Origin: an uncultured delta proteobacterium
GTDB taxonomy: Bacteria; Desulfobacterota; Desulfobacteria; Desulfobacterales; B30-G6
NCBI GenBank assembly: GCA_963823335.1
Contig: CAWGLD010000004.1
Location: 192,001 to 256,000 of the forward strand
Direction of reading: 5' to 3'
Length of the DNA: 64,000 nt
Every line of letters begins with the position of its first letter. Position 1 is the first letter of the stretch. Below, in pieces: positions 29,519 through 61,823 of the stretch. A program made the position numbers and the translations under genes. Under the pieces are notes generated by a model that saw nothing but the letters and a program-made list of their open reading frames with translations, was not told where the DNA came from and searched no databases.

Positions 29519-29611
29519 ATAGCTAAAGCCATAAGCTGTAAACTCTAAGCTGCTTACCGGCTATAGCTGATTGCCGACTCTTGCTGATTGCCGACAATTA
29601 ACTGATAGCTT
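29519..29611. repeat. degenerate 7-mer (AGCT-core) arrays
   Basis: agctaaagccataagctgtaaactctaagctg...ctatagctgattgccgac...ctgatagct. Similar tracts at about 36477, 38480 and 56697. Confidence 0.55.
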
Positions 29612-29619
29612 TAACCCAG
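29605..29619 (+). promoter_or_regulatory. degenerate regulon box (11/15 match) upstream of peptide 1
   Basis: ATAGCTTTAACCCAG, then 24 nt, then TTGATA at 29644. Confidence 0.55.
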
Positions 29620-29717
29620 TATAAAACCCCGATTCTGCTCTTATTGATATATGTTGGCCGATGCATATATTGTTTCTAAGCAAAAGATAATCATAACCAA
29701 CAAAAGGAGATACGGCC

Positions 29718-29855
29718 ATGACGAATACAACTGATTATGTCGAAAATGAAAAAGAAAGAGAAGAAGGACATGTCGACACCCGCAGCAAAAACTTTGAATG
29801 CGAAGACAAAGACCCCAACTTAGGGTGTGACCCGGGAATCGATGTTGCAGGATAA
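29718..29855 (+). CDS. 45-aa acidic C-x8-C peptide, copy 1 (not in the ORF track)
   Basis: MTNTTDYVENEKEREEGHVDTRSKNFECEDKDPNLGCDPGIDVAG; RBS AAGGAG; paralog at 36671. Confidence 0.88.
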   Translation: MTNTTDYVENEKEREEGHVDTRSKNFECEDKDPNLGCDPGIDVAG

Positions 29856-29900
29856 CCCAATCAACCCCATTGCCAAACCACCATTAATTCTGATTTAAGA

Positions 29901-29930
29901 CAAGGCAGGCCGCCATCCGGTCCTGCCTTG
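29901..29930 (+). terminator. hairpin after peptide 1
   Basis: caaggcagg...cctgccttg; weak U-tract. Confidence 0.55.
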
Positions 29931-30001
29931 CTAATTTCAATTTTTGATCAGCTTTTACTATTCAGGGCTCACCACGTTGAAAACCTAAACAGGAGGTCCT
30001 A

Positions 30002-30673
30002 ATGAAAAAAGTTAGTTTTTTTAAATGGAAAAGATCATCCGTGGTGGCAGTACTCAGTGCAATCTGCATCTTTTTTTTTACAACGGGCTGTTCTTTTTTC
30101 GGTATCCGAAACACCGAAGAAGCCGGCTATGCGGTTATCGATAAACGTGACCAGATCGAGATCCGGGAGTACGATGCGCTTGTGGCCGTTGAGACATTTG
30201 TGAACACCGGCTATGGGGAAGCCGGCACTATCGCTTTTAAGAAACTCTTTGCCTACATATCCGGTGAGAATATTTCAAAGACAAAGATTGCCATGACGGC
30301 ACCGGTTATCTCAAAAGAAGGGGATGCGCCGACAGGAGATAAAATTCCCATGACGAGCCCCGTTCTTGGGCAACGGCAAGCCAAGGGCTGGAGATATAGC
30401 TTCTTGCTCCCGGCAGGCTACACACTTGAGAATGCACCGTTTCCGTCTAATCCTGAAGTCAAACTCGCGGTGATACCGAGAAAAAAAGTCGCGGTGATAC
30501 GCTACTCGGGATCCTGGAAAGAGCAAACAATGCGCGAGAAATCCGAAAAACTCGTCGAATGGATCCAGGCCAATGGCCTCGAGCGCCTTTCAAGCCCTCG
30601 TTCCGCGCGATATGATCCCCCTTGGACGCTTCCGTTTTTACGTCGTAACGAGATCATGATCGACGTCAATTAG
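30002..30673 (+). CDS. SOUL heme-binding lipoprotein
   Basis: Lipobox-like TTGC, AFKKLFAYISGEN, KIAMTAPV, YDPPWTLPFLRRNEI. Confidence 0.92.
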   Translation: MKKVSFFKWKRSSVVAVLSAICIFFFTTGCSFFGIRNTEEAGYAVIDKRDQIEIREYDALVAVETFVNTGYGEAGTIAFKKLFAYISGENISKTKIAMTAPVISKEGDAPTGDKIPMTSPVLGQRQAKGWRYSFLLPAGYTLENAPFPSNPEVKLAVIPRKKVAVIRYSGSWKEQTMREKSEKLVEWIQANGLERLSSPRSARYDPPWTLPFLRRNEIMIDVN

Positions 30674-30818
30674 CTGCTTGACCAAGAGGTCATTAAATAC
30701 CAATACCATGGCTGCCAAAGCGAACTGCAATGGTTAGCATATTCCCAGGGGCGGGTCGACTATCCCAGTTAACCGGGCTGAGCGGGTTCTTCGGTACACA
30801 TTATCCAACGGGGTGATT

Positions 30819-31943
30819 ATGGGCAAGCCAGTAAAAGGGTTTATGATCGCAACGTTTCTCATTGTTGCACTGGTCTTTATTGAATCACAGTCATTGGCAG
30901 CAGAATTGTCGGTGCGCTTGGAGAACCCCCCACCCGGAGGGAACGTTCAGTTTGTATTGTTCGATTCGGCCAATACCTTCGGTGACCTTCGGGATCCGGT
31001 GAAGGTTGTGAAACTACCACTTGACGGACGTGAACGCTACCGTGTCACAGATGTCCCCCCCGGTGAGTACGCTCTCTTGGTTTACTTCGATGAAAACAAC
31101 AATGATCGACTGGACAGGAACTTCATCGGTATCCCGAAAGAACCACTGGGCTTTGCAAACCGTTACCAACCCAAAGGCCCGCCGAGCTATCAGCGTGCGG
31201 CCTTTATTTTACGTAAAGGGGAGTCACGTACCATCGACGTAGAGCTCCGCCGCCCCCTGGGAAAGCGTGGCCGCCTGGGTGTTGGCTTGGGTGTTATCGC
31301 TCAAACGAGTCCCTATCGCGATGTCACCGGCGGCGTTTATCGTGCTATCCCGGCGGTTGTCTACACGGGTGAGCGCTTGCAAATTTATGGGCCCAGAATC
31401 CAGATCGGTCTTGCCGGCAATGAAAATCTGCGTCTTGCCGCAACGGGCCGCTATCGATTTGGAACCTACGAGGAAAATGAGAGTGATTTTCTCAGGGGTA
31501 TGGGCGACAGAAAAGACACGTTCATGGCTGGTCTGGCCCTTAATGTCGAACTTCCTGGTGGAGTGAATCTTTCAACCGGGTACGCGCATGACACCCTGGG
31601 CAAGATTGGCGGGGGAGAAGGCAATATCAAAATTGACAAGTCATTCCAAATGGGTGTTTTCAGGTTCTCACCACAAATCGGGCTAAACTGGCTCAGTTCG
31701 AAGGTTGCCAACAACGATTTCGGTGTGCCAACCCGCAAGGCCACCCCAGACCGCCCTGCCTATGAACTCGATTCAATAGTCAATGTGGAGAGTGGCGTCG
31801 GGATGTTCATCGAGGTTACCCGTGACTGGCTGGTCATCTTGAACACAAGTATAGAATTTTTCGACAAAGATGTCATCGACAGCCCTATTGTCAGCGAAGA
31901 ATATATTGTCAAGGGATTGGCTGTCATTAATTATGTGTTTTGA
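30819..31943 (+). CDS. DUF2141 + MipA/OmpV outer-membrane protein fusion
   Basis: DENNNDRLDRNFIGIPKEPLGF (DUF2141-like), then a beta-barrel ending in YVF. Confidence 0.82.
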   Translation: MGKPVKGFMIATFLIVALVFIESQSLAAELSVRLENPPPGGNVQFVLFDSANTFGDLRDPVKVVKLPLDGRERYRVTDVPPGEYALLVYFDENNNDRLDRNFIGIPKEPLGFANRYQPKGPPSYQRAAFILRKGESRTIDVELRRPLGKRGRLGVGLGVIAQTSPYRDVTGGVYRAIPAVVYTGERLQIYGPRIQIGLAGNENLRLAATGRYRFGTYEENESDFLRGMGDRKDTFMAGLALNVELPGGVNLSTGYAHDTLGKIGGGEGNIKIDKSFQMGVFRFSPQIGLNWLSSKVANNDFGVPTRKATPDRPAYELDSIVNVESGVGMFIEVTRDWLVILNTSIEFFDKDVIDSPIVSEEYIVKGLAVINYVF

Positions 31944-32131
31944 TAAAAAGATAACCACTCCTTTTCTTTCTCGATATCAGTATTATAGTCTGAATGTATT
32001 GGTTACCAGCTGTAAAAAAAATGTTCTGCATAATCTCTTGGTAAAAAAGGATCCCATGGGGACATTGTTTTGACAATCACTGAAAACATGGTGATCATCT
32101 GATCATACAGGTCACTCGAAAGGAGGTTCAA

Positions 32132-32506
32132 ATGGAGCTCAAAGAATACTTTGAAAACACGGAAGGCAAAGGCGTCATGGCCACGGCAGACAGCAACGGC
32201 AAGGTGGATACGGCCATATACGCCCGGCCGCATGTCATGGATGATGGAACCATTGCCATGATCATGCGTGATCGACTCACCCATCATAATCTTGAATCCA
32301 ATTCACATGCCTGCTACATGTTTATAGAAAAAGGCCCCGGCTACAAAGGCAAGCGCCTCTTCTTGACCAAAGTGCGCGAGGAGCAGGATTCCGAATTGCT
32401 GCAGTCCCTGCGACGGCGGCAATATATCGACAAAAAGGATGCGTCTAAGTTTCTGGTATTTTTCCAGGTCGACAAAGAGCTGCCCTTGGTGGGCACCGGG
32501 AAGTAG
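32132..32506 (+). CDS. pyridoxamine 5'-phosphate oxidase family (split-barrel flavin-binding) protein
   Basis: VMATADSNGKVDTAIYARP, HHNLESN; RBS AAGGAGG. Confidence 0.8.
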   Translation: MELKEYFENTEGKGVMATADSNGKVDTAIYARPHVMDDGTIAMIMRDRLTHHNLESNSHACYMFIEKGPGYKGKRLFLTKVREEQDSELLQSLRRRQYIDKKDASKFLVFFQVDKELPLVGTGK

Positions 32507-32744
32507 ATATCCGGTTCCAGAGGGCCCGGCACTGATTCAACCCTGTAAAGGTTAATGTTACCCACATTCATCGTGTGATAAATTCTAAATCCGAGGGCCC
32601 TACCCCTGCGGGCGGGATCTTCATTTGGATCCGTCAGGCGAGGTTTGGGGGTCGTTTCGGCAAGTCATGGGAAACGCACTTGCTATTACAGTTTTGGTTA
32701 CCTACAATAGGACTTCGTCCTGAACCCATACGGATAGCGTTTCT

Positions 32745-33197
32745 ATGAAAGCAAATGAGCAGTTTCGAAAAAGAGTGGCAGAATTGTTCCGTACGCAAAA
32801 CCTGGCAACCTTGTCCACCCAGCATGCAGGGCAACCCTATGCCAGCCTGGTGGCATTCGTTGCCAGCGATGACTTGGATCGGATTTACTTCGCAACGCCA
32901 ACGACCACACGTAAATATGCAAATTTGGTCGCTGACAGTCGCGTGGCCATGCTAATCAACAGCAGTATGAACCAGACATCTGATTTTCATCGGGCTATTT
33001 CGGTGACAGCGGTGGGCAAGGCAAAAGATGTCACCGGAAAAGATAAAAAACGCATCCTGGAGCGGTACCTGGCCAAACACCCCCATCTGGAAGATTTTGT
33101 GCATTCGCCAACGTGTGCCATGGTACAGGTTTCGATTACCAGCTATTACATGGTGAAAAATTTCCAGAATGTAACGGAGCTGCACCTAAACTCATGA
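32745..33197 (+). CDS. pyridoxamine 5'-phosphate oxidase family protein
   Basis: LATLST..GQPYASLVAF, TRKYANL, YLAKHPHL. Confidence 0.85.
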   Translation: MKANEQFRKRVAELFRTQNLATLSTQHAGQPYASLVAFVASDDLDRIYFATPTTTRKYANLVADSRVAMLINSSMNQTSDFHRAISVTAVGKAKDVTGKDKKRILERYLAKHPHLEDFVHSPTCAMVQVSITSYYMVKNFQNVTELHLNS

Positions 33198-35389
33198 ACT
33201 GGATTCTAACCACCGAAGAGATCCATCCCGGCAATCGACATAGCGTCGGCGGCAAAGGATACGCCCTGTCTCTTCTGACCAAGGGGGGCTTCAAGATTCC
33301 CAGAACGATCTGCATCACCACCGATGCCTATCATGAGTATGTAAATGGGTCCGGCCTGCGTGAGCGCATCCTAATGGAACTCCATCGAAAAGATTTCAAG
33401 GAAATGCGATGGGAAGAAATCTGGGACTGCGCAACCCGCATTCGCAACTTATTCCTGACCAAACCGCTATCTACAGACCTGGTGCAGAATATTCGCGAGC
33501 ATATCGAAAAACGATTCCAGGACAGAACGGTGGCCATTCGGTCTTCGGCGCCCGAAGAAGACGACGCCCGGTCATCGTTTGCCGGGCTGCATGAATCCTT
33601 TATCAACATATCCGGTGCAGACTCGATCCTGAAACACATCCGTATGGTATGGGCCTCGCTGTGGTCGGATGCAGCTTTGCTGTATCGCCAGGAAATCGGC
33701 TTGGACGTTGAAAAGAGTTCCATGGCGGTGGTGGTACAGGAAACCGTCGCCGGTGAAAGGTCTGGCGTCGTCTTTACCCGAAACCCCAATGACGAGAACC
33801 AGGGAATTATTGAATCGATTCACGGGTTAAACCAAGGTCTTGTGGACGGCACGATTGAACCGGATCGCTGGATAATCGATCGACATAGCAACAAGATTGT
33901 TTCGCACACCTCCCCGGAACGAAAAAACTGGATCGTGCCAAACTCTAAAGGTACCCAAATGGCGGCTCTTCCGGCAGAGAAATCGGCCCAACCGCCCCTG
34001 ATCTCACAAGAGGTCGATGTCGTATTTCAAACGGCCCTTAAAGCAGAACAATTTTTTAAAATACCGCAGGATGTGGAATGGACCTATGACAAGGACGCGC
34101 TGATCCTGCTCCAATCCCGCCCCATTACGACCCTGAGCTCAGATAAATCAGATAAACCAGAAGACAATCGCGGCTGGTATCTGAGCCTGCACCGCAGCTT
34201 TGATAACCTAAAAGACCTGCGACGAAAAATTGAAAAAGAACTGATTCCAGGTATGATCGCTGAAGCTGAAAGCCTGAACGCAAAAAACCTCATAAAGATG
34301 TCGAATCGTATCTTGGCGGATGAGATCAGAAAACGTCTGGAAATCAACCACAAGTGGGTCAACATTTACTGGGCCGATTTTATTCCGTATGCCCATGGTG
34401 TAAGGTTGTTCGGACAGGTTTACAATGATGCTGTACGCCCTGATGATCCTTACGAATTCATGGATCTGCTTACCCATACCCAAATGGCCAGCATCGAGCG
34501 AAACAAGATGCTGATGGATCTGGCAGCCATCATCCGCAGGGATGAGCAATTGGCAGAGATGTTAAAGCAGGGCAATTACGACAGCCTCGATGTCAAATTT
34601 AATGTGTTGATCGATGAATTTATCGAAAAATTTGGCGACCTCTCCTGTGCGGTCACCGGTGGTAAAAATTGCGTTCTGGGAACCGGGCCACTATACCGAC
34701 TGCTGCTCGAAATGGCCAAATACCCAGCCCAGACAGGCAGCCACAGAAAAAAGAACGCAATCAAGCGATCGATTCAGAAATACTCCGATCACTTTGAAGA
34801 AGATCAGAAGGCCTGGGCCATGGAACTGCTTGATCTGGCCAGAAACAGCTATCAGTTGCGTGATGATGATAATATCTATCTTGGCCGCATCGAAGCACAA
34901 TTGCTGGCAGCCGTCCAGGAAGCAAAAAAACGCCTTGAAAACCTGGCCGGTGATCCATCCGCCAACGTGTTGCAACAGGTTATAGAAGAAGTTGATTTCG
35001 GAACCGAATCTCAGTCAACTTCCCTCGCAGAGAAGACCGAAATTGGCAGGCTTCAAGCCCGCCAACTGACCGGCCAGCCCGCCGGCCCGGGCATTTCAAA
35101 AGGCAAAGCCCGGGTGATCCGGCATCATTCCGACCTGGCAAATTTTAAACATGGCGAGGTCTTGGTGTGCGATGCCGTCGACCCCAATATTACCTTTGTT
35201 GTACCCTTGGCCACGGCCGTTGTCGAAAGAAGGGGCGGCATGTTGATTCATGGCGCCATTATCGCACGCGAATATGGCTTGCCATGTATTACCGGTGTAC
35301 CGGACGCAACCAGGTTGATCCAGACCGGTGACAACATCACCGTGGATGGATATTTGGGAATTGTAACCATCGGTGATGCCAGCTTGTAA
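33194..35389 (+). CDS. PEP-synthase/PPDK-like enzyme (ATP-grasp + central helical + phospho-His swivel domain)
   Basis: VGGKG, AIRSSAPEED..SFAGLHES, QDVEW, LQSRPIT, GGMLIHGAIIAREYGLP; ATGA overlap with the upstream gene. Confidence 0.85.
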   Translation: MNWILTTEEIHPGNRHSVGGKGYALSLLTKGGFKIPRTICITTDAYHEYVNGSGLRERILMELHRKDFKEMRWEEIWDCATRIRNLFLTKPLSTDLVQNIREHIEKRFQDRTVAIRSSAPEEDDARSSFAGLHESFINISGADSILKHIRMVWASLWSDAALLYRQEIGLDVEKSSMAVVVQETVAGERSGVVFTRNPNDENQGIIESIHGLNQGLVDGTIEPDRWIIDRHSNKIVSHTSPERKNWIVPNSKGTQMAALPAEKSAQPPLISQEVDVVFQTALKAEQFFKIPQDVEWTYDKDALILLQSRPITTLSSDKSDKPEDNRGWYLSLHRSFDNLKDLRRKIEKELIPGMIAEAESLNAKNLIKMSNRILADEIRKRLEINHKWVNIYWADFIPYAHGVRLFGQVYNDAVRPDDPYEFMDLLTHTQMASIERNKMLMDLAAIIRRDEQLAEMLKQGNYDSLDVKFNVLIDEFIEKFGDLSCAVTGGKNCVLGTGPLYRLLLEMAKYPAQTGSHRKKNAIKRSIQKYSDHFEEDQKAWAMELLDLARNSYQLRDDDNIYLGRIEAQLLAAVQEAKKRLENLAGDPSANVLQQVIEEVDFGTESQSTSLAEKTEIGRLQARQLTGQPAGPGISKGKARVIRHHSDLANFKHGEVLVCDAVDPNITFVVPLATAVVERRGGMLIHGAIIAREYGLPCITGVPDATRLIQTGDNITVDGYLGIVTIGDASL

Positions 35390-35473
35390 CAATCGGAAGG
35401 TTCATATGACAATCAGCATGAGTGAAAACGAATCATCAACCCAAAAAAACGCGAGATGGTGAGGGCTTTCAAG

Positions 35474-36424
35474 ATGGATGAAAATTTTAGAATAGGCATC
35501 AGCAGTTGTTTACTCGGAAATATGGTACGTTGGAATGCAGGCCATAAACGCGATCGCTTCCTGACAGATACCCTGGGTCGATTCGTAGAATATATTCCCG
35601 TATGCCCCGAAGTGGAAGCCGGGTTCGGTATTCCCAGGGAGTCGATGCGTCTGGTGGGCGACCCTGACAAACCGCGTCTGATAACCTTCAAAAGCAAGAC
35701 GGACGGAACCCATCAAATGACTCACTGGGCGACAGCGCGCGTCCAGGAACTCGAAAAGGAGGATTTGTGCGGCTTCATTTTCAAGAGCGATTCCCCCAGC
35801 AGCGGTATGATACGGGTAAAGGTCTACAACGACAAAGGCATGCCCGAAAAGAAAGGGGTGGGCATGTTTGCCCGGGCTTACATGGATCATTTCCCCCTCA
35901 TACCGGTGGAGGACGACGGCCGGCTGCACGACCCCGCCATCCGTGAAAATTTTATCGAGCGAATCTTTACCCTGAAACGCTGGCGGGACTTCACTGCCAA
36001 ATCACCCAAGATGGCAACCCTGATTGATTTTCATACTCGCAACAAACTTTTGTTTCTGGCACACAGCCAAAAACACTACCGTCTGATGGGAAAATTGGTG
36101 GCAGAGGGCAAGAAACTGCCCATAAAAGAGCTTCTTGACCGGTATGTGCGTCTTATGATGGAGGCATTGGCGCTCAAAACCACGACAAAGAAAAATATCA
36201 ATGTCCTGCAGCACTTGATGGGATATTTCAAAAAAGAACTGAGTGGGGATGAAAAACAGGAACTGCTCGAAATATTTGATCAATATCGTCGGGAACTGGT
36301 ACCCTTGATCGTACCCATCACCCTCGTCAATCATTATGTGCGCAAATATGACCAGCCCTATCTGAAGCATCAAACCTATCTTAACCCCCACCCGCTTGAG
36401 CTCAAACTGCGCACGCATGTGTAA
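35474..36424 (+). CDS. DUF523-DUF1722 fusion (TudS/RudS-like thiouridine desulfidase; YbgA-like)
   Basis: GISSCLLG, VCPEVEAG, KSDSPSSG, NVLQHLMGYFK, YLNPHP. Confidence 0.85.
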   Translation: MDENFRIGISSCLLGNMVRWNAGHKRDRFLTDTLGRFVEYIPVCPEVEAGFGIPRESMRLVGDPDKPRLITFKSKTDGTHQMTHWATARVQELEKEDLCGFIFKSDSPSSGMIRVKVYNDKGMPEKKGVGMFARAYMDHFPLIPVEDDGRLHDPAIRENFIERIFTLKRWRDFTAKSPKMATLIDFHTRNKLLFLAHSQKHYRLMGKLVAEGKKLPIKELLDRYVRLMMEALALKTTTKKNINVLQHLMGYFKKELSGDEKQELLEIFDQYRRELVPLIVPITLVNHYVRKYDQPYLKHQTYLNPHPLELKLRTHV

Positions 36425-36558: not shown

Positions 36559-36573
36559 ATAGTTTTTACCTAT
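36559..36573 (+). promoter_or_regulatory. regulon box upstream of peptide 2 and the SDR-photolyase genes
   Basis: ATAGTTTTTACCTAT, then 24 nt, then TTGATT at 36598. Confidence 0.75.
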
Positions 36574-36670
36574 TATATACCCCCCATTTCTCCCTTGTTG
36601 ATTTATTCTTGCCCATGCATAACTTATGTACAAGCAAGGGTTGAACAAAACAAACAAGGGAGGTACTACC

Positions 36671-36942: not shown

Positions 36943-38487
36943 ATGAACACTGATCTTATCCTCGTGACCGGTGCCACCGGGTATGTAGGCGGGCGGTTGA
37001 TTCCTGCCTTGATAAAGGACGGTTATGGGGTACGTGCCATGGCTCGAAACCTGAATAAAATCGGATGCCGGCCCTGGGCCGGGGACTCCCGGGTGGAACT
37101 GGTTCAAGGCGATGTCCTGGATCTGAAATCGCTCAAGAAAGCAGCTTCCGGGTGCAGGGCGGCCTATTATCTGGTGCATTCCATGATCGCCCAGAAGGAT
37201 AAGTTCGCCGAGGCCGATCGCCGTGCGGCCAAAAATATGGTTGCAGCCGCATCTGACGCAGGCCTGAAAAGAATCATCTACCTTGGGGGGCTGGCGGAAA
37301 GCAAGGCAGGAATCTTGAGCAAGCATCTGAGGTCACGCATCGAAGTGGCCGAGATCCTGCAGGCCGGGCCGGTTCCCACCACCGATTTGAGGACCCCCAT
37401 GATCTTGGGTTCCGGAAGCGCTTCTTTTGAAATTCTGCGCTACCTGGTCGAACGTCTGCCCGTCATGACCACGCCCCGCTGGGTGCGCTCAATGAATCAA
37501 CCCATCGCCATTCGCAATGTCATCACCTATCTTGTGGGCTGTCTCAAACATCAGGAAACCATTGGCCAAACCTATGACATCGGTGGGCCTGATATTCTCA
37601 CCTACCGAGATCTGCTGGATATCTATGCCGAGGAAGCACGACTACCCAAACGATGGATCATACCCGTACCCGTTCTAACGCCCACACTGAGTGCCTTGTG
37701 GATTCACCTGATCAGCCCGGTACCCAAGGACATTGCCTTGCCTTTGACCGAAGGGCTGACCAGTGATGCCGTCTGTACTGAAAATCGAATTCAATCCATC
37801 ATACCCCAGCCCTTGTTGAGCTGCAGGGAAGCCATACGAATGGCTCTCGATCGTATTAAACAGGAACAGGTGCAAACCTGCTGGATGGATGCAGGCAGTT
37901 TGCTGGCACCTGAGTGGGCCCATTGCGGAGATGCTGAATGGGCCGGGGGCACGATCATGCAATGTGGCTATCGGGCCCTTTTGCAAGCACGCCCACAGGA
38001 CGTTTGGAACCCCGTGTCACGTATCGGAGGCAACACAGGCTGGTATTTTGGCAACTTTCTCTGGCGCTTGCGTGGGATCATGGACCGGTTGGCGGGGGGC
38101 GTGGGCTTGCGGCGCGGGCGTCGTCATCCCGTTGAGCTCGGTGTCGGCGACGCGTTGGACTTCTGGCGGGTACTGCTCGTAGATCCGCCTGAACGATTGC
38201 TTCTTTTAGCTGAGATGAAAATGCCCGGTGAAGCACTGCTTGAAATCCAGATCACAGAAAGCAAGAAAGGTCGAACCGAGCTCCGTTTGCTGTCCCGGTT
38301 TCTGCCCAAGGGTCTCTTGGGCATCCTCTATTGGTACGGGCTTTATCCCTTTCATCAATGGATTTTCTCGGGTATGCTCCAAGGCATTGCCAAAGCAATT
38401 CAAAAACCGGTTCTGCACGGCCCCGAAAGATTTACCCCCAAGATTACAAAGACATGTGCATTGCCATCAAAAAACATTGAGCGATAA
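36943..38487 (+). CDS. SDR family oxidoreductase with DUF2867 (YbjT-like)
   Basis: VTGATGYVGG, YYLVHSM, GSGSASFE, GDALDFWRV, AEMKMPG. Confidence 0.9.
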   Translation: MNTDLILVTGATGYVGGRLIPALIKDGYGVRAMARNLNKIGCRPWAGDSRVELVQGDVLDLKSLKKAASGCRAAYYLVHSMIAQKDKFAEADRRAAKNMVAAASDAGLKRIIYLGGLAESKAGILSKHLRSRIEVAEILQAGPVPTTDLRTPMILGSGSASFEILRYLVERLPVMTTPRWVRSMNQPIAIRNVITYLVGCLKHQETIGQTYDIGGPDILTYRDLLDIYAEEARLPKRWIIPVPVLTPTLSALWIHLISPVPKDIALPLTEGLTSDAVCTENRIQSIIPQPLLSCREAIRMALDRIKQEQVQTCWMDAGSLLAPEWAHCGDAEWAGGTIMQCGYRALLQARPQDVWNPVSRIGGNTGWYFGNFLWRLRGIMDRLAGGVGLRRGRRHPVELGVGDALDFWRVLLVDPPERLLLLAEMKMPGEALLEIQITESKKGRTELRLLSRFLPKGLLGILYWYGLYPFHQWIFSGMLQGIAKAIQKPVLHGPERFTPKITKTCALPSKNIER

Positions 38488-38582
38488 GCGATAGGCTGTA
38501 ATCTGTAAGCCGCCTACCGCTTATTGCTTATCGCTTGCAGCTTAAAGCTTAAAGCAAGAAACAAGGTGAAACATTGAATATC

Positions 38583-39959
38583 ATGCCCATTCAACCCGCT
38601 CGCATCCAGCCATTGAATAAGCACAGCATCAAAAAGGGGCGCTATGTGCTCTACTGGATGCAGCAAGCCCAGCGGGCCGAATACAACCATGCCCTGGAAT
38701 ATGCCATTCAACAGGCCAACACAATCGAACAAGGCGTACTGGTGGGCTTTGGTCTGATGGACGATTACCCGGAAGCCAACCTGCGTCATGTCACCTTTAT
38801 GCTGGAAGGACTGCGAGAAACTCAGGCCACCCTGGCCAACCAGGGGATCAAAATGGTTATCCAACACGGTTCTCCAGTGGATGTGGCTTTGTCCCTTGGG
38901 AAAAATGCCTCGTTGATCGTCTGCGATCGTGGTTACCTCAAGCATCAAAAAGCCTGGCGCACTCGTGTGGCCCTCTCGGCAGACTGCCCGGTTGTGCAGG
39001 TGGAAAGTGATGTGGTGGTACCCATAGAGATTGTCTCCAACAAAGCCGAGTATGCGGCGCGCACGATTCGCCCCAGGATACACCGGCACCTGGATGATTA
39101 TCTTGTGCCGTTACCGACCAGCAGGGTGAAAAAAAATTCACTCGGCTTAAACATCGACAGTCTGGATCTAAAGGACATTGGCACCCTTATAAAGCGTCTT
39201 TCTTTGGACCAGCAAATTGCGCCGGCAACTCAGTTTTTCAAAGGCGGCCCATCCCAGGCAATGGCAAGGTTTGAACATTTTATTCAAAAGCAGTTTCATC
39301 GCTATGTGGAAAACCGCAACCAACCCCAGACCGATGATATTTCCCACATGAGTCCCTATCTGCATTTTGGGCAGATTTCACCCCTCTACCTAGCGTTGAG
39401 AGTCAAAGCAGACAAGGGCCGTCATTGGGAGGCCCAAGAAGCCTATCTGGAAGAGTTGATCGTTCGCCGTGAGATGGCCATGAACTTTACCCATTACAAC
39501 CCCAGCTATCATTCGTTTGCCTGCCTGCCACCATGGGCCCGGAATTCATTGCAACAACACCAGCAAGACCCCCGCGAGAGCATATATACCCGCAGGCAAC
39601 TGGAAAATGCCAGAACCCACGATGCTTATTGGAACGCAGCCATGCAAGAGATGAGGATCACCGGCTTTATGCACAACTACATGCGGATGTACTGGGGGAA
39701 AAAGATACTGGAGTGGTCCAGAACGCCTATGCATGCCTTTCGAACAACCCTGGCCATCAACAATAAATATTTTATCGATGGCCGGGACCCAAACTCTTAT
39801 GCCGGGGTCGCCTGGATCTTCGGTATGCATGACCGCGCCTGGTTCGAGCGGCCGATATTTGGTAAAGTCCGCTACATGGCGGCATCCGGCCTGGAGCGAA
39901 AGTGCGACATCCAGGGATATGTGGACAAAGTTGATGCAGTCGTAAAAAGTCTGAATTAG
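38583..39959 (+). CDS. phr: deoxyribodipyrimidine photolyase, class II
   Basis: YWMQQAQRAEYNHAL, SPYLHFGQIS, GFMHNYMRMYWGKKILEW, DGRDPNSY. Confidence 0.95.
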   Translation: MPIQPARIQPLNKHSIKKGRYVLYWMQQAQRAEYNHALEYAIQQANTIEQGVLVGFGLMDDYPEANLRHVTFMLEGLRETQATLANQGIKMVIQHGSPVDVALSLGKNASLIVCDRGYLKHQKAWRTRVALSADCPVVQVESDVVVPIEIVSNKAEYAARTIRPRIHRHLDDYLVPLPTSRVKKNSLGLNIDSLDLKDIGTLIKRLSLDQQIAPATQFFKGGPSQAMARFEHFIQKQFHRYVENRNQPQTDDISHMSPYLHFGQISPLYLALRVKADKGRHWEAQEAYLEELIVRREMAMNFTHYNPSYHSFACLPPWARNSLQQHQQDPRESIYTRRQLENARTHDAYWNAAMQEMRITGFMHNYMRMYWGKKILEWSRTPMHAFRTTLAINNKYFIDGRDPNSYAGVAWIFGMHDRAWFERPIFGKVRYMAASGLERKCDIQGYVDKVDAVVKSLN

Positions 39960-41850: not shown

Positions 41851-42053
41851 TTCTCTTGATTCTCATCTGTTTGTGTGTGGTTTGTCCTATCATTCCGCTT
41901 GTCTTTTTCTGATATTGATTTATGACGATTCATGCTCAATATATATAGTTAATAAATGTGTCCCGAGTCAAACACGCGACGCCAACACCAATCGGAATGC
42001 TGTTATGACAATAACGACAGCTTTCATACCCGTTATGGTATAGAGGTGAATTT

Positions 42054-42872: not shown

Positions 42873-43029
42873 AATCAACTCCTTGATTGGTGGGTTAATT
42901 TATATCACTCTACAAAGATAACGCTATGTTGCCACTTATCAATAGGTATATAACAATGGGTATTTAGGGGTATAAAAACATTGTTTAATGACAGGTTGGA
43001 CAGAATACCAACCCGTTCGTATCTGCATA

Positions 43030-46676: not shown

Positions 46677-46788
46677 TTTGGTTCCTCCATGATGATAGCG
46701 CTTCATGATCGGGACGTCCTGTTTCTCACTCGTCAAAATATATAAACGAAACATCACAATTCAATAGGGGAAGGATAAGGTTAAGTTG

Positions 46789-46803
46789 ATAGGTAAAAAC
46801 TAT
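46789..46803 (-). promoter_or_regulatory. regulon box upstream of the methyltransferase operon
   Basis: Minus strand ATAGTTTTTACCTAT (identical to 36559-36573), then 24 nt, then TTGAAT. Confidence 0.75.
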
Positions 46804-47790: not shown

Positions 47791-48072
47791 GGGTTTGTTC
47801 CTCTTGAGATCGGTTGTTGGCAATAAATTGAACAATACACCAATTGGCCTATTGTTTCAATCAATGGATCGTTTGCAACCATTCACGCGGCTATCTTGGA
47901 TACCCATCCGTTTTCATCTGCATCGGCTCTGTAAAGATCCGTGTATCTGGCAGCTACAACCCGGTTGACAGGTCATCATTCCTCGGGTAAGAATTAATGT
48001 AATCATTCTTCTTATAGCGTTCTATAATATACTCTTCCCATAAATTTAGCGAGTCAAATGGAGGAAACCCGG

Positions 48073-49317: not shown

Positions 49318-50075
49318 TCAAGAGCTGTATATACGAAGGCACGGTCCGCCACCGGCGATTCCGGCCCCGGCCGAACAAATTCCAGTATCGGCTGTTTTTC
49401 ATGTATCTGGATCTGGATGAACTGCCGACCGTATTCGATATGCACCCATTGTGGTCAAACCAGCAGGTCAATCTGGCCTATTTGCGTCGCAGAGACCATT
49501 TCGGAGATCCCAAAATACCCATCAAACAGTCGGTTCAGGACCTGGTTGAAGAACGTCTGGGCCAGCGCCCCGGGGGACCCATACGAATGCTGACCCATTT
49601 GCGCTATTTCGGCCACTGTTTTAATCCGGCCAGTTTCTATTATTGCTACAACCAGGAAGATACTGATGTGGAAACCATTGTATTGGAAATCCACAATACG
49701 CCCTGGGGAGAGCACTTTTGCTACGTAATGGGCAGAGAGGAGAACCTGCATCCATTCAAGGACTGGCGTCGGCATACCGGCGAGAAAGTCTTTCACGTCT
49801 CACCCTTTATTGACATGGATATCCGCTATGATTGGCGTTTTCGATTGCCGGGCGACACCCTCAGTGTTCATATCATCGATTATCAGAAAGACAGTAAACT
49901 GTTCGATGCCACCCTGATGCTGCAGCGTCGCAGCCTCGATCGTCGGGCATTGACGCGCCTACTGCTCATCTATCCAGCCATGACCGTCAAAGTAGTCACC
50001 CTGATCTATTGGCAGGCCTTACGTTTGGTCCTGAAAAAGACCCCTTTTTTTACCCATCCGAAAAAAAAGGGATGA
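49314..50075 (+). CDS. DUF1365 protein (UfaO/RSP1090-like)
   Basis: YEGTVRHRRF, FNPASFYYC, EIHNTPWGE, FHVSPF, IYWQAL. Confidence 0.9.
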   Translation: MIKSCIYEGTVRHRRFRPRPNKFQYRLFFMYLDLDELPTVFDMHPLWSNQQVNLAYLRRRDHFGDPKIPIKQSVQDLVEERLGQRPGGPIRMLTHLRYFGHCFNPASFYYCYNQEDTDVETIVLEIHNTPWGEHFCYVMGREENLHPFKDWRRHTGEKVFHVSPFIDMDIRYDWRFRLPGDTLSVHIIDYQKDSKLFDATLMLQRRSLDRRALTRLLLIYPAMTVKVVTLIYWQALRLVLKKTPFFTHPKKKG

Positions 50076-50095
50076 ATTTTTGAAAGGATTGTCAC

Positions 50096-51379
50096 ATGAC
50101 TGACTTCATCATACCGGCAGAAGCGCCGCATCTTGATGAACTCAAGGCAGGCAAATTGGAGCGGCTCGCGCGCCAGACAGTTTTATCAGTGCTCGAGAAA
50201 CTGAAATTCGGCCGAATTCGAATTATTGAAGATCTCGGCCAGCTTACGTTTGGCAAAGATGGACCCGCATCGTTGCAGGCCAGTCTTCACATTCATCACC
50301 AGCGGTTTTACAGCCGCATTCTCTTCAACGGCAGCATCGGAGCGGCAGAGGCCTATATGGAAGGACTCTGGTCGGCGGATGATCTGACCACGCTCATGCG
50401 GATCATGGCCCTTAACCAGCCTGTTTTTGCCGAGATGGAAAAAGGCCCGGCACGTCTGACAGCTCCGCTTTACAAGCTGTATCATTTGGCCAGGAAAAAT
50501 ACCAAGGTGGGCAGTCGGAAAAACATCCTCGCCCATTACGATCTTGGCAACAATTTCTATGCGTTGTTTCTCGACAAGACCATGGCCTATTCCTGCGGCA
50601 TATTCGAAAATGAACATAGCACCCTTGAAGAAGCCTCTGTTGCCAAACACGATCGGATCTGCAAGAAACTCCAGTTGAAGCCCGGCGATCGGATTTTAGA
50701 AATCGGTACCGGCTGGGGCGGGTTTGCAGTGCATGCCGCTCGAAATTACGGTGTGCACGTCACCACCACCACCATATCCGACGAACAATACCGGTTTTCC
50801 CGGGCCCGCTTCCAAAAAGAAGGCCTCCAAGACCAGATCTCTATATTGAAAAAAGACTATCGGGATCTTACGGGTAAATATGACCAGCTGGTTTCCATCG
50901 AAATGATCGAGGCCGTGGGACATCAATATTTCGACACCTTTTTTAAGACCTGCAGCCAGTTGCTTCGTGATAACGGCATGATGCTGCTGCAGGCCATTAC
51001 GATCCAGGATCAGGAATTCAAACGTTACACCCGCTCGGTTGATTTCATCAAACGCTATATCTTCCCTGGCGGTTGTGTGACCTCCGTGGCGGCCATGACG
51101 GCCAGCATCACCCGTGTCACCGATATGAGACTTTTTCATCTCGAAGATATTACACCCCATTATTCACGAACCCTGAGGAAATGGCGTCAACGCTTTTTCA
51201 ACAACATCGACCAGGTACGCGCCATGAAATTTCCGGAAACCTTCATCCGTATGTGGGAATACTATCTGTGTTATTGCGAGGGGGCATTTGCCGAGCGGTA
51301 CATCGGTGATGTCCAGATGCTGTTGACCAAACCATTCTGCCGCCGGGAGTCACTGCTCCCCGATTTAGGCGAAAATTAA
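50096..51379 (+). CDS. cfa: cyclopropane-fatty-acyl-phospholipid synthase family methyltransferase (UfaM-like)
   Basis: NILAHYDLGN, YSCG, LEIGTGWGG, SIEMIEAVG, YIFPGG. Confidence 0.92.
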   Translation: MTDFIIPAEAPHLDELKAGKLERLARQTVLSVLEKLKFGRIRIIEDLGQLTFGKDGPASLQASLHIHHQRFYSRILFNGSIGAAEAYMEGLWSADDLTTLMRIMALNQPVFAEMEKGPARLTAPLYKLYHLARKNTKVGSRKNILAHYDLGNNFYALFLDKTMAYSCGIFENEHSTLEEASVAKHDRICKKLQLKPGDRILEIGTGWGGFAVHAARNYGVHVTTTTISDEQYRFSRARFQKEGLQDQISILKKDYRDLTGKYDQLVSIEMIEAVGHQYFDTFFKTCSQLLRDNGMMLLQAITIQDQEFKRYTRSVDFIKRYIFPGGCVTSVAAMTASITRVTDMRLFHLEDITPHYSRTLRKWRQRFFNNIDQVRAMKFPETFIRMWEYYLCYCEGAFAERYIGDVQMLLTKPFCRRESLLPDLGEN

Positions 51380-58219: not shown

Positions 58220-58695
58220 TTCCTCCGGTTGGCGTACCCAGATTCGTCACCAGCGGAGGCGCCTTTATGCCGTGATCCCCGTATGCGTTGTCAGCAGAAT
58301 CGGGCCCCTTGCCGATGAGTCGGATAATGTAATAGCTTCCAGCACCGAAAACGAAAACGTAGGTAATAACAAAGGCCAGTAGTGACAAGGCGATGTTGGG
58401 TCCCACGACGGGAGATACCGTATCGGACGTGCGCAGGACCTCATACACGATGTATGGTTGCCTGCCAATCTCCGTGACAAACCATCCGGTGAGTACCGAA
58501 GGTGACCGCAAAGATTTTCACCCACATACGGTAGATGTCCTGATAAACGTCCTTACCGGTTTTCAGATAACGCCACTCCACCACGGCCAGCCAGCTTGCC
58601 AGGCCAATGGTAAAGGATGGAAAAATTATATGAAACGTGATTGTAAACGCAAACTGTATTCGCGCCAGAACAACCGGGTCTAAAAAATCTGTCAT
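58206..58695 (-). pseudogene. cydA: cytochrome bd oxidase subunit I with large internal deletion
   Basis: LARIQFAFTITFHIIFP...KIFAVTFG jumps out of frame to VLTGWFVTEIGRQP; only about 490 bp remain. Confidence 0.9.
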
Positions 58696-58859
58696 GGTTC
58701 AGTACTCCTTTGCCGGCCGACAATGTGAAACCAACCACTTCGTGTCCGTCCTATATCCAAAAAGTCCCGCACAAGCCATGAAGAAGACACACCGGCGGAT
58801 ACCCATGCGAATCAGACAGTTGGACAGCCGTCGACGCTCTGCTATTTCCAGGGTCGGGT

Positions 58860-59654
58860 TTATACGTCCCCCTTTTTTTTGGGAAACCAAGGGAAAAAAG
58901 TATTGGTTCGTGCAATGTAATCTTTATATTTTGGCCGCGTATGAACAATGGCCTTTTCCATCAAGGTCACACCGGTCATTTTCAATAGAACGGTGGTAAT
59001 GATAATGGGGCTGATGACGGTCCATAGACTGGACGGGGTCGCCAGGGCAATTAAAAATATGCCCCACCAGATAAGACTCTCCCCAAAATAATTGGGGTGC
59101 CTGGAATAGGCCCACAAACCCTGATCCATGACACGACCCTTGTTGGCGCCGTCAGCCTTGAAGCGGGCCAGCTGCCAGTCGCCCACTGCTTCAAAGAAGA
59201 AACCGGCCGCCCACACGCTTGCGCCCAAACAATCAATCCATGTCAGCTGGGGTGGCTGGGGTGACATCTGACCCCACTGCAATGCCAGGGCAATAGCCCA
59301 TAAAAAGATTGCCTGCAAAACGAAAACTTTGAAGAGACTGATCAGCCAGAAGGAATCCCCGCTTTCTTCACGCCAGCGGCCGTAGCGTGGATCTTCTCCG
59401 TGCCCCCAATTACGCCAACTCAAGTGCAGACTGAGACGCAGCCCCCATAAGGTTACCAGAAGGGTTATCAGAATCATGCGCCCCTGAAATCCTTCGGCGG
59501 TAAAAAAAGTCAACCAGGCTATCAGCACAAAGCCCAGTCCCCATAAGGAATCCACAATGGTGACATTCTTGGTAACCAGGCTGATTATCCAGCCCAGAAG
59601 CATCATGCCCAGCACGGCTATAAAATTGCTGGTTAAAATTGATGTGATGTCCAT
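58860..59654 (-). CDS. DUF1295 membrane protein (steroid 5-alpha-reductase-like)
   Basis: IVDSLWG, GEDPRY, GLWAYSRHPNYFGE. Confidence 0.92.
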   Translation of the reverse strand: MDITSILTSNFIAVLGMMLLGWIISLVTKNVTIVDSLWGLGFVLIAWLTFFTAEGFQGRMILITLLVTLWGLRLSLHLSWRNWGHGEDPRYGRWREESGDSFWLISLFKVFVLQAIFLWAIALALQWGQMSPQPPQLTWIDCLGASVWAAGFFFEAVGDWQLARFKADGANKGRVMDQGLWAYSRHPNYFGESLIWWGIFLIALATPSSLWTVISPIIITTVLLKMTGVTLMEKAIVHTRPKYKDYIARTNTFFPWFPKKKGDV

Positions 59655-59735
59655 AATCGTTCTCCTTGGAACACTATTATGTCAATCGTATGTCAATCGC
59701 TATATCCACAACATCCCCGCAAGTTGACACCACTG

Positions 59736-61139
59736 TCAACTCACTTTGCTTGTTCTGGCCAGCGGATTTTCAAATGCTTCGCCGGCACGCTTTTTTTCGA
59801 TGGCCAACCTGATTTTCTCATGCACCTGATCACTGATGGGGTAGGCCAGAGCAACGACGAGCCCCAAGAGGTTGAAAAGGGCGGGAATGAAAGCGTACAG
59901 CATACGCAATACAAACTGAACCTTCTGGGTCTGTTCGACATTGGGCGTGTATCCCGCCATCCCCAGAACCGCAAGACCGACACCGATGCCGACGGCCGCG
60001 GCCAGTTTCTTTGAAATCGACCACCACCCGATGTACTGCCCCTCTCGCCGCTCGCCCGTCAAGAGTTCATCGTAGTCGATGACGTCCGCCTGTATTGCAG
60101 AAGGAAGCGCCAGTGTCGCCCCGAAACCGATACCGGAAAGAAACACCAGTATGCCATATAACCAGGTATCGCCCGGACCCAGAAAAAAAACACCCATGAA
60201 AGCTCCCGAGTTGATGCCCATAGAGACCAGCCAGGCTGCCTTCTTTCCGGTTCGACGGCTGATGTATATCCAAAACGGCAGAAACAGGATGCCGCTCATA
60301 AAGTAAAGTAACAGGAAAAAGTCGGCCATGTCAGACTGGAGTACGTACTCTACGTAAAAAAGAATCAACGTTGCCGGCAGGTTGTTGCCGATAGCGCTGA
60401 TGGTGTACGCAGCCAGCAGAATCACAAACGGACGGTTTCGAGCGACTTGCCGGATACCTGAAAACAGGCCCAGCGGCGATCCACCGGACTGGGGGTGGCG
60501 CTCTTTGATGGATATTACACACCACCAGGCCGTTCCTATCAACAACGGAGCGTACAGGACGGATATCCAGAAAAACTTGGCTCGCTCACCCGCTGCATTG
60601 TCAGGGAGTCCGAACAACCACTGCACCAGGGCAGGAGCACTGGCCGCCGCCAGGGTTCCGGCAATCAAAAATCCGTCGCGCATCCCGAAAAGGGAGGTGC
60701 GTTCGTGATAGTCGAAGGTAATTTCAGGACCCAAAGACTCATAGGGAACCGTAACGATGGTCCAGAAAAAGAAAAGGGCGTAGATGAATACACCAAACCA
60801 CACGGTCTCAGCAGGGGGTGATGCTTGTGGCGGATTGAAAAGCAAAAACATTGTTAAAGCTACAAAAAAAGCCCCAACAGCGATATAGGGCCGCCGTCGA
60901 CCAAAACGGGTTCGGGTAAGATCGGACAGGTAACCGATAACCGGATCGGTCACCGCATCAAAAATTCGCACGCTGAAAAGTATATAGCCCAGCAAGACGA
61001 CATTGATTCCGACAACATCGGTATAAAATTTGGGGATGTAGACATACACGGGAATGCCGATAACAGCCAGAGCATAGGCAGGTGCGGCATAGGCGACCTT
61101 CTTCCAAAAAGGAACCTTGAATGAATGGTCATGATTCAT
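59736..61139 (-). CDS. MFS transporter (GPH / MFS_2 family)
   Basis: RIFDAVTDPVIGYLSD, FGRRRPY, ADVIDYDE...RREG. Confidence 0.92.
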   Translation of the reverse strand: MNHDHSFKVPFWKKVAYAAPAYALAVIGIPVYVYIPKFYTDVVGINVVLLGYILFSVRIFDAVTDPVIGYLSDLTRTRFGRRRPYIAVGAFFVALTMFLLFNPPQASPPAETVWFGVFIYALFFFWTIVTVPYESLGPEITFDYHERTSLFGMRDGFLIAGTLAAASAPALVQWLFGLPDNAAGERAKFFWISVLYAPLLIGTAWWCVISIKERHPQSGGSPLGLFSGIRQVARNRPFVILLAAYTISAIGNNLPATLILFYVEYVLQSDMADFFLLLYFMSGILFLPFWIYISRRTGKKAAWLVSMGINSGAFMGVFFLGPGDTWLYGILVFLSGIGFGATLALPSAIQADVIDYDELLTGERREGQYIGWWSISKKLAAAVGIGVGLAVLGMAGYTPNVEQTQKVQFVLRMLYAFIPALFNLLGLVVALAYPISDQVHEKIRLAIEKKRAGEAFENPLARTSKVS

Positions 61140-61708
61140 GGTGACCCCAACAGCTGCCGTTTAAATGAATTGTTCATGGGTTTCTCCCCCAGCCACATGG
61201 CATAGAGAGCAGCTGCAAAGTCAGCACCTTGGATGACACCCAGAGACTCCCCATTCAATGCCAGTTCGGTCCCTTTGCCGGGCACATAGCTGAGTGCATA
61301 CCGGTCGCCTGGTTGAACATCCCGGTAAAGTGCGTTTTGTCTGTCTAGGCGCGGTTTCAACCTTTCGAATTCTTCAGGGCCGACATTTTGAGCCATCATT
61401 TTATAGGATGCAGAACCAAAATCCTCAGCCTTGATGGCGTGGAAATATTCGATCTCCAATCGTTTGGGCGTATCGTTCAGGACACTTTCAGAAGGTGCTC
61501 CTTCCAGCATGTACAATGCACCGACATAAGCTTTGATAACACGCATGAAGCGAAAAAGACCCGCACCCCGGATCTGAAGTGTTGTCCCGTCGATGGCGAC
61601 GCTATCTTTGAAATACACGCCTTGAATCTCAACACCGACAGCACTCGTTCCTGAAAGAAATAGGAACATGGCCAGTAAAACTATTATCCATGTATATGTT
61701 GTTTTCAC
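61136..61708 (-). CDS. chalcone isomerase-like (fatty-acid-binding fold) protein
   Basis: Signal peptide, LQIRGAGL, YVGALY, MWLGEKP. Confidence 0.85.
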   Translation of the reverse strand: MKTTYTWIIVLLAMFLFLSGTSAVGVEIQGVYFKDSVAIDGTTLQIRGAGLFRFMRVIKAYVGALYMLEGAPSESVLNDTPKRLEIEYFHAIKAEDFGSASYKMMAQNVGPEEFERLKPRLDRQNALYRDVQPGDRYALSYVPGKGTELALNGESLGVIQGADFAAALYAMWLGEKPMNNSFKRQLLGSP

Positions 61709-61808
61709 AGATATTTCCTTTCAAATTTCGGGTCTGAACCGAATCTTTTTCCTACAATATTTAGCATTCTGTAACCAAATGCAACATGAGATGAATAGGG
61801 GGTTAACA

Positions 61809-61823
61809 ATAGGTAATACCTAT
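61809..61823 (-). promoter_or_regulatory. regulon box, near-perfect palindrome, in the divergent CHI/DUF2177 spacer
   Basis: ATAGGTAATACCTAT; on the minus strand, 24 nt later comes TTGCAT. Confidence 0.75.

Follow-up and report, generated by a model that had tools for sequence, protein, structure and literature searches.

Desulfobacterales encounter oxygen and light at sediment surfaces. LitR/CarH proteins are B12-dependent repressors, and the photoactive cysteine of LOV domains lies in the motif GxNCRFLQ. The RpoE-ChrR regulon of Rhodobacter, Shewanella and Vibrio includes, in the available parts of the two sources, photolyase, cfa, a RSP_1090/1091-type pair and ybgA/DUF1722 (PMC7074977, PMC4336711). 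Among the PAS-LuxR proteins, VqmA of V. cholerae is an activator modulated by disulfides that depend on oxygen (available sections of PMC7387800), and the PimM-type regulators of Streptomyces use a 16-bp operator, CTVGGGAWWTCCCBAG, in the -35 region (available sections of PMC9774167).

We describe here a gene island in a window of 64,000 nt, the whole stretch of DNA that was analysed. We suggest that a 15-bp box in its promoters is probably where the PAS-LuxR protein encoded next to them binds, a protein that would activate stress-gene promoters, with oxidation driven by oxygen or light as the predicted signal.

The island overlaps the RpoE-ChrR regulon in gene content; its photolyase gene is behind the box, and cfa with DUF1365, a core ChrR-regulon target, is in the island without a box. 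However, its promoters consist of TTG-16-TAnnnT with an upstream palindrome instead of TGATCC/CGTAAT, and a one-component activator is predicted to take the regulatory role, with no ChrR found. The cupin of ChrR, PF12973, has no match in this genome (93.87% complete), and a Cupin_7 search across the order gave weak generic cupin matches only (best E 2e-11), which are uninformative on ChrR. The strict RpoE-type pattern TGATCC-16-CGTAWY matches once genome-wide; of three loose matches in the window, none coincides with a boxed promoter. MerR-B12 fusions were not found either: four B12-binding matches are corrinoid proteins without HTH, and three MerR matches have no B12 domain. A sequence-only reading had reported neither ChrR nor LitR/CarH in the window; neither was found in the 94%-complete genome. 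The location of the regulator gene with photolyase-type genes is shared with LitR/CarH and with the MerR-like blue-light regulator VCA0056 of V. cholerae (available part of PMC5241685).

In its layout, a one-component PAS + LuxR HTH protein, the regulator resembles VqmA and the LOV-LuxR protein EL222, which are its top Foldseek matches. It differs from them in sequence (13-14% identity), in the long coiled coil between the domains and in the targets. At the place of the LOV motif the regulator reads GVNYLSTC, with Y69 present in 149/150 relatives. With PimM it shares the domain order and a palindromic operator near the -35; the 15-bp site described here, however, ends 24 nt upstream of the -35, has another sequence (RTAGKT-n3-ACCTAY) and precedes stress genes, whereas the Streptomyces sites belong to antibiotic clusters. 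A literature search, with subscription journals and regulon databases outside its scope, found in print no control of a photolyase/lipid-protection module in Desulfobacterales.

Promoter element and target genes

The box is the upstream end of a fixed 67-bp promoter, with the order palindrome RTAGKT-n3-ACCTAY, 24 nt, TTG (-35), 16 nt, TAnnnT (-10). The promoters and genes of the island are the following (matrix scores in bits):

29605..29671, +: promoter 1; box 29605-29619, -35 TTGATA 29644-29649, -10 TATATT 29666-29671; 48.6 bits; followed by the 45-aa gene, then SOUL and MipA genes
29718..29855, +: 45-aa two-cysteine protein, copy 1; matches no Pfam or NCBIfam family
30002..36424, +: SOUL haem-binding, DUF2141-MipA, two PNPOx-like, PPDK-like and DUF523/DUF1722 genes (Pfam)
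36559..36625, +: promoter 2; box 36559-36573, -35 TTGATT 36598-36603, -10 TAACTT 36620-36625; 67.5 bits
36671..36808, +: 45-aa two-cysteine protein, copy 2; terminator-like hairpin downstream, 36855-36882
36943..39959, +: NAD-binding/DUF2867 protein and class II-type CPD photolyase (TIGR00591, E 2e-153, below its cut-off)
41876..41942, +: promoter 3; box 41876-41890, -35 TTGATT, -10 CAATAT; 29.5 bits; upstream of lipocalin 42054-42593
42915..42981, -: promoter 4; decayed box 42967-42981, -35 TTGATA 42937-42942, -10 TATCTT 42915-42920; 10.1 bits; followed by a MoaD/ThiS-like gene
46737..46803, -: promoter 5; box 46789-46803, -35 TTGAAT 46759-46764, -10 TATATT 46737-46742; 60.8 bits; followed by genes for a methyltransferase, a 57-aa two-Cys protein (45191-45364), a 322-aa protein of unknown function and Usp
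46888..47790, -: PAS-LuxR regulator, 300 aa; PAS, long coiled-coil helix, LuxR HTH
48058..51379, +: amine oxidase-DUF1365-cfa operon, divergent from the regulator; without the element in this genome
61757..61823, -: promoter 6; perfect palindromic box 61809-61823, -35 TTGCAT 61779-61784, -10 AAATAT 61757-61762; 54.9 bits; followed by chalcone-isomerase-like, MFS and DUF1295 genes (58860-61708)

Four copies of the box had been noticed before and are found as reported: ATAGTTTTTACCTAT has exact copies at 36559-36573 (+) and at 46789-46803 (-), ATAGGTATTACCTAT lies at 61809-61823 (-) and a degenerate copy, ATAGCTTTAACCCAG, at 29605 (+). In all four an ACC starts 6-8 nt past the box and a TTG exactly 24 nt past it. 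The spacing of the TTG had been read correctly; its identity is corrected here: it serves as the -35 in a promoter of sigma-70 type whose spacer is 16 nt. The promoters at 29605 and 36559 belong to two copies of a single unit made up of promoter, 45-aa gene and terminator, and are therefore not independent sites.

The exact 15-mer is present nowhere else in the 4.37-Mb genome, and the perfect palindrome ATAGGT-n3-ACCTAT has a single genome-wide occurrence, at 61809. Allowing up to three mismatches, there are 6 box matches against 0.95 expected, a number reached in 0/100 shuffles. For scoring we built a 71-column matrix from 41 sites in related genomes, with this genome excluded (46 seeds were collected and 5 removed as reverse-strand or off-pattern). 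The top score in the reversed genome is 5.4 bits. The 4.4-Mb genome has six strong sites, five inside the window, with the weak moaD site extra; the lipocalin site (41876) and one off-window site (G000:C5:13062, 38.0 bits) are newly added. Seven sites in the genome exceed 10 bits, and six of them are in the island. A LexA/SOS operator was also considered for the box and rejected on this genome-wide count and distribution.

The spacing is a property of the element itself: in box-only matches picked regardless of TTG, a TTG follows at exactly +24 in 29/42 (next-best offset n=3), and in 26 of these 29 a 16-nt spacer leads to nAnnnT. The box is thus wholly upstream of the -35 at a fixed distance, the arrangement of upstream-site (class I-type) activators. 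Motif search in relatives, proposed by the sequence-only reading, gave 51 non-training sites with the same consensus. Together these data support the element as a regulon motif, and it is very likely that the box is an activator site.

The genes at 30002..36424 are presumably co-transcribed from promoter 1, as they lie on the same strand. The lipocalin site is stronger in orthologous loci (55.7, 51.3 and 46.4 bits). The weak match before moaD/thiS, seen earlier as well, draws its support mainly from orthologues at 35.6, 33.8, 20.7 and 15.9 bits. The amine oxidase-DUF1365-cfa operon, named earlier as a target, has no box here, and a box is found before it in few relatives only. A TTGACA-type promoter match of the operon's own lies at 47965-47994. 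Genes repeatedly found behind the box in relatives are those for photolyase, lipocalin, SOUL, fasciclin, DUF1722 and DUF1295. The most constant predicted direct targets are the 45-aa gene and the methyltransferase gene behind the regulator.

Co-occurrence of the element and the regulator

The element is found at most 600 nt behind the regulator in 48/54 orthologous loci (8 of them training sites), with 6/54 having no adjacent box, versus 0/24 paralogue or distant-relative loci (315 kb, best score -1.5). Elsewhere in the phylum it stands behind orthologues of 41-49% identity, at 50.0 and 11.2 bits, in 2/6 genomes new to the search. Order-wide, a strict pattern matches in 35/79 regulator-positive versus 10/172 regulator-negative genomes; the pattern misses 44/79 regulator-positive genomes, and its reversed control matches in 8/251.

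The 45-aa gene gives a second comparison. Above 10 bits, the element precedes it at 27/32 loci of regulator-positive genomes versus 4/28 loci of regulator-negative ones, a comparison whose Fisher p-values are overstated because the genomes are related. Of 60 regulator-positive genomes that have the gene, 32 were scored; 24 of the 32 loci were chosen for failure of the strict pattern, and 19/24 pass 10 bits, while 5/32 loci remain below the threshold. Of 28 regulator-negative genomes that have the gene, 24 were scored, two more are known to bear boxes, and G108 and G145 were left out. In regulator-negative G025, G039, G062 and one G194 locus the box is lost and the TTG-16-TAnnnT core is still in register. 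Contrasts within the families f45 and f37 go in the same direction. In G223 there are also sites 0.4-3.2 Mb away from the regulator, and in this genome (G000) on a different contig, so linkage alone is insufficient to explain them. Both comparisons bear out the earlier proposal that the PAS-LuxR protein is the likely reader of the box and a likely activator.

Boxes are also present in genomes without a detected regulator (G076, G092, G099, G140, G186, G245), and per genome the box precedes the 45-aa gene in 5/26 regulator-negative genomes examined. In 4/5 of these box-bearing genomes the usual neighbour gene of the regulator is missing too, and in G140 it lies 650 nt from a contig end; assembly gaps would fit as the reason for the missing regulator. 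A similar box that keeps the 24-nt gap is found before housekeeping genes in regulator-negative G041, G047 and G055; thus another factor can use the 24-nt geometry. Autoregulation was rejected as a general feature, the box being upstream of the regulator in 2/32 loci only and absent there in this genome.

The PAS-LuxR protein

The regulator has an N-terminal PAS domain (PF08448, E 2e-6, about residues 19-138) and a C-terminal LuxR HTH (PF00196, E 2e-15), and so belongs to the PAS-LuxR one-component proteins in the broad sense. In the structure models (pLDDT 85 and 94) a coiled coil, residues 140-205, separates the two domains. Among 150 distant representatives, C73 is conserved in 146/150, C108 in 148/150, H109 in 144/150 and H136 in 148/149. 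The PAS subfamily comprises 8353 clusters at E<=1e-10 and is part of long multidomain proteins that number in the thousands.

Among PDB sequences nothing matches the PAS part significantly, and a profile search gave one marginal match. The best structural match (Z 11.7, rmsd 3.3, 125 aligned, 13% identity) is level with many unrelated PAS domains; fold searches returned generic PAS domains and no cofactor assignment, and a search of the ESM Atlas generic PAS clusters only. No PAS cluster with the Cys/His motif of the regulator was found in the available part of Xing et al. 2023 (PMC10468136). This PAS domain represents a large structurally unsolved subfamily and, with its invariant residues C73, C108-H109 and H136, is a predicted thiol/metal redox sensor.

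Proposed mechanism and alternatives

The element tracks the regulator gene across relatives, hence the PAS-LuxR protein likely switches on the stress genes. That the neighbouring PAS-LuxR protein is the reader of the box we hold with good confidence. It would bind as a dimer, with its two LuxR HTH domains reading the two half-sites, the centre of the box being near -66 from the predicted start. Pairs of C every ~11-12 bp between the box and the -35 may provide additional contacts on the same face. The activator would compensate for the short 16-nt spacer and the imperfect -35 of a weak housekeeping-type promoter, and Cys73, Cys108, His109 and His136 of the PAS domain may form a thiol or metal switch. 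For oxidation by oxygen or light as the signal the odds are roughly even; the gene content suggests induction by light or singlet oxygen.

If true, this is another regulatory solution for a module that is under RpoE-ChrR or LitR/MerR elsewhere. A single purified protein together with a single reporter would suffice to test the regulator, predicted operator, promoter geometry and target list. The regulon would serve as a readout for a large PAS subfamily with invariant Cys/His and no close solved relative, and the unnamed 45-aa protein family gains a tie to function. A bolder proposal, which we put forward tentatively, is that Desulfobacterales drive the photolyase/oxidative-damage module by a one-component activator with a PAS domain of a new class, a Cys-Cys-His-His thiol/metal sensor for oxygen or photo-oxidation, which by convergence would fill the place of ChrR, the zinc anti-sigma factor. 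The 45-aa two-cysteine protein heading most boxed transcripts might then be a redox partner or feedback element, and the regulon might reveal the signal of thousands of PAS proteins of the same subfamily.

It is possible, if somewhat doubtful, that the PAS-LuxR protein reads the box in response to a bound metabolite, metal or product of lipids, much as its autoinducer is bound by VqmA, and governs a general envelope/stationary-phase regulon. Many of the targets have no specific link to light (methyltransferase, Usp, MFS, MoaD-like), the regulon does not include the DUF1365-cfa operon, the same PAS subfamily is spread over thousands of long multidomain proteins, and a ligand receptor, VqmA, is the top Foldseek match. 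However, the recurrence of photolyase, lipocalin, SOUL, fasciclin, DUF1722 and DUF1295 behind the box speaks against this reading, the invariant Cys/His suit redox or metal chemistry, and VqmA is itself tuned by oxygen-dependent disulfides, according to the available sections of PMC7387800.

It is unlikely that another regulator, such as a coiled-coil LuxR paralogue, reads the box and the PAS-LuxR gene merely travels on the same island. This genome does encode three paralogues (44% identity over the C-terminal half), at least six genomes carry boxes without a detected regulator, and in genomes without the regulator a variant of the box stands before housekeeping genes. Yet paralogues are present in nearly all relatives (40/41 genomes) and the box is mostly lost without the orthologue; their recognition helix differs, none of the 24 paralogue or distant loci has a nearby box, and the remote sites also track the PAS-LuxR protein.

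A PerR/Fur-family operator for peroxide stress is very improbable. The candidate D. vulgaris PerR site AATAGGAATCGTTCCTGTT has the same outer ATAGG/CCT letters (PMC545781, available part), and the genome has three Fur-family genes. But the gap between TAGG and CCT is 7 nt in the 19-bp Desulfovibrio palindrome given there versus 5 nt in all sites here, the box is at a single fixed place wholly upstream of the -35 and does not cover the core promoter, and Fur-family genes are present in 4/4 tested box-less genomes.

That the 67-bp element is an activator-independent alternative-sigma promoter, with the box an upstream element and not a protein-binding palindrome, we find hardly credible: its 16-nt spacer (24 matches in the genome-wide survey) does differ from the modest peak at 17 nt (44 matches) and one ECF-type sigma is encoded, but its hexamers are TTG.../TAnnnT, not the RpoE2 TGATCC/CGTAAT given in the available part of PMC4336711, and the box, a palindrome, has been lost independently of the core.

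To return to the genes predicted to be activated by the PAS-LuxR protein, the 45-aa two-cysteine family is present in 88/251 genomes and photolyase homologues are present in 107/251, exceeding the count of the regulator, which weighs against the main reading. In seven metatranscriptome runs 8-10% of words matched; the contigs, analysed for 4/7 runs, gave neither start sites nor levels, as they all belonged to relatives.

Architecture of the box and its promoter

The 15-bp box proposed in the sequence-only reading is confirmed in three exact copies and one degenerate copy, with TTG 24 nt downstream in each. The exact 15-mer occurs in the 4.37-Mb source genome only at 36559 and 46789, and six matches with up to three mismatches are found against 0.95 expected, a number reached by 0 of 100 shuffles. 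In loci of relatives the box forms the front of a longer unit. The matrix for this unit was trained on 41 sites of relatives (46 seeds minus 5 reverse-strand or off-pattern ones), none from the source genome. Its consensus, repeated by 51 sites outside the training set, comprises the palindrome (T)RATAGKT-n3-ACCTATYA, C pairs at 23-25 and 34-36, TTG at 40-42, 16 nt and TAnnnT; we call this 67-bp promoter the element.

Since TTG was a selection criterion for the matrix, its spacing was tested separately on box-only hits. TTG stands at exactly +24 in 29 of 42 hits (loci L095-L172), against 3 hits for the runner-up offset; nAnnnT follows at a spacer of 16 in 26 of these 29. The promoter scan makes its calls at the same places, TTGATA-16-TATATT and TTGAAT-16-TATATT. 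Hence, the TTG is the -35 of a sigma-70-type promoter, and under standard numbering the box centre would lie near -66. Genome-wide, such promoters have a modest spacer peak at 17 nt (44 hits vs 24 at 16).

The regulon in the source genome

The whole-genome matrix scan yields six sites above 20 bits, and its reversed control peaks at 5.4 bits.

Matrix sites above 20 bits
36559, 67.5 bits
46803, 60.8 bits
61823, 54.9 bits
29605, 48.6 bits
C5:13062 (another contig, outside the window), 38.0 bits
41876, 29.5 bits

Genes and elements discussed
29718-29855 and 36671-36808, copies of a 45-aa gene
39981-40057, ~80-nt element between the photolyase and FAD/NAD genes
45191-45364, two-cysteine gene (57 aa) following the methyltransferase
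45462-46676, methyltransferase
46888-47790 (-), PAS-LuxR regulator

The site of the MoaD/ThiS-like gene (moaD) scores 10.1 bits, and two further genome positions 9.6 and 8.4 bits; orthologous sites in relatives reach 15.9-35.6 bits for moaD and 46.4-55.7 bits for lipocalin. At 29605 and 36559 the promoter, 45-aa gene and terminator are a single duplicated unit. In the source genome and relatives the boxed genes are the 45-aa gene and those for DUF2867-epimerase, photolyase, SOUL, fasciclin, lipocalin, MoaD-like, methyltransferase, chalcone-isomerase-like/MFS/DUF1295 and PNPOx-like proteins. Of 32 related loci, only 2 have a good box within 500 nt upstream of the regulator. DUF1365 and cfa, previously counted as members, are to be removed here, as no box precedes the amine oxidase-DUF1365-cfa operon in the source genome; in some lineages it may belong to the regulon, because full elements adjoin or face it at L256:3820 and L144:7623. 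The C5 site precedes short genes, one of them for a 100-aa protein with homologues in boxed regions of relatives too.

The acidic 45-aa protein, of an unnamed family, has two invariant Cys eight residues apart in 120/120 homologues. Its gene reaches 11 copies per genome, and a copy is found at a distance of 66-117 nt from each of 21 strict-pattern boxes. The 57-aa protein has no Pfam family.

The regulator as probable reader of the box

We suggest that the box is very probably bound by the PAS-LuxR regulator, and with still greater confidence that it is an activation site. In orthologous loci the regulator is followed within 600 nt by the element in 48 of 54 cases (8 being training sites), and in none of the 24 paralogue or distant-relative loci. 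The interpretation proposed earlier is partly supported, failing for the unboxed DUF1365-cfa operon, and is extended. Across 251 genomes of the order the strict pattern is found in 35 of the 79 that have the regulator and in 10 of the 172 that lack it; the reversed control matches in 8. The 45-aa gene, common to 88 of the 251, served as a shared-target test with zero training sites: the element precedes it at >10 bits at 27/32 loci of regulator-positive genomes vs 4/28 of regulator-negative ones. In three genomes (G025, G039, G062) and at one G194 locus the core promoter is kept in register and the box alone is lost, as expected of an activator site whose protein is gone. Sites also occur remote from the regulator, 0.4-3.2 Mb away in G223 and on C5 in the source genome, and for orthologues in other orders the element scores >10 bits behind the gene in 2 of 6.

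Some observations count against this reading, and kinship among genomes inflates the p-values of the comparisons. The element is missing at 5 of the 32 regulator-positive 45-aa gene loci and 6 of the 54 orthologous loci. Six genomes (G076, G092, G099, G140, G186, G245) carry boxes with no detectable regulator orthologue. Assembly gaps are a possible cause, because the regulator's usual neighbour gene is also missing in 4 of 5 tested genomes of this kind and lies close to a contig end in G140.

At L244:3691, L245:69, L246:3657 and L248:3637 a variant box (GTAGGATATTCCTAC type) has the 24-nt gap to TTG and a poor -10. It precedes housekeeping genes, which we take to be malate dehydrogenase-like, mreB-like and UDP-sugar epimerase-like, in mostly regulator-negative genomes, and is likely read by a second factor. 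A Fur-family reader of the box is very unlikely: tested genomes that have lost the box still carry Fur-family genes, and the Desulfovibrio PerR site differs in spacing (PMC545781).

The regulator protein and proposed mechanism

The 300-aa regulator consists of PAS, a 65-residue helix and LuxR HTH. C73, Y106, C108, H109, W116 and H136 are nearly invariant (71 aligned sequences; 150 distant representatives), and H32 is retained in 126/149; this conservation points to a putative metal/thiol site in the PAS domain, whose subfamily comprises 8353 clusters at E<=1e-10. A PDB sequence search with the PAS part gives no significant match, and a fold search generic PAS matches only. The LOV cysteine motif is absent. 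VqmA and EL222 match the full-length model at 13-14% identity. VqmA is tuned by oxygen-dependent disulfides (PMC7387800), thus offering a thiol-switch precedent within the PAS-LuxR layout.

A regulator dimer would most likely bind the palindrome near -66, and the phased C pairs may provide further contacts.

It would recruit housekeeping polymerase to the weak promoter with its 16-nt spacer when the PAS thiols or their metal react to oxygen or photo-oxidation, a signal to which we give roughly even chances.

In this picture the architecture, the sites with their targets and the co-occurrence with the regulator are established; binding, activation and signal are proposed.

Comparison with known systems

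The system probably fills the role that the RpoE-ChrR regulon (PMC7074977, PMC4336711) and the MerR-like blue-light regulator (PMC5241685) have elsewhere, but by the membership tests it belongs to neither. The earlier observation that RpoE-ChrR and LitR/CarH regulators are absent extends to the source genome, where neither ChrR cupin nor MerR-B12 fusion is found. The regulator qualifies as PAS-LuxR in the broad sense; its box is unlike the PimM operator (PMC9774167). We found no paper on the regulator, box or regulon in the openly accessible literature searched.

Neighbouring features

The methyltransferase behind the regulator gene is its most constant neighbour and shows weak FKBP-like similarity at its N terminus (E 5e-5). 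With a hairpin fold of -30.7 kcal/mol and 162 genomic blastn hits, the ~80-nt element shows the deepest metatranscriptome contig coverage, with many unrelated flanks; it is likely a REP- or MITE-type repeat. The oxygen-defence genes look decayed: at 51563-52673 and 57366-58511 lie a katG-like gene split into two short parts of 147 and 255 aa and, ahead of cydB, a 101-aa cydA-like remnant. At 15827-19269 a long radical-SAM gene adjoins a GNAT acetyltransferase, a pair resembling the lysine aminomutase/beta-lysine acetyltransferase osmolyte pair.
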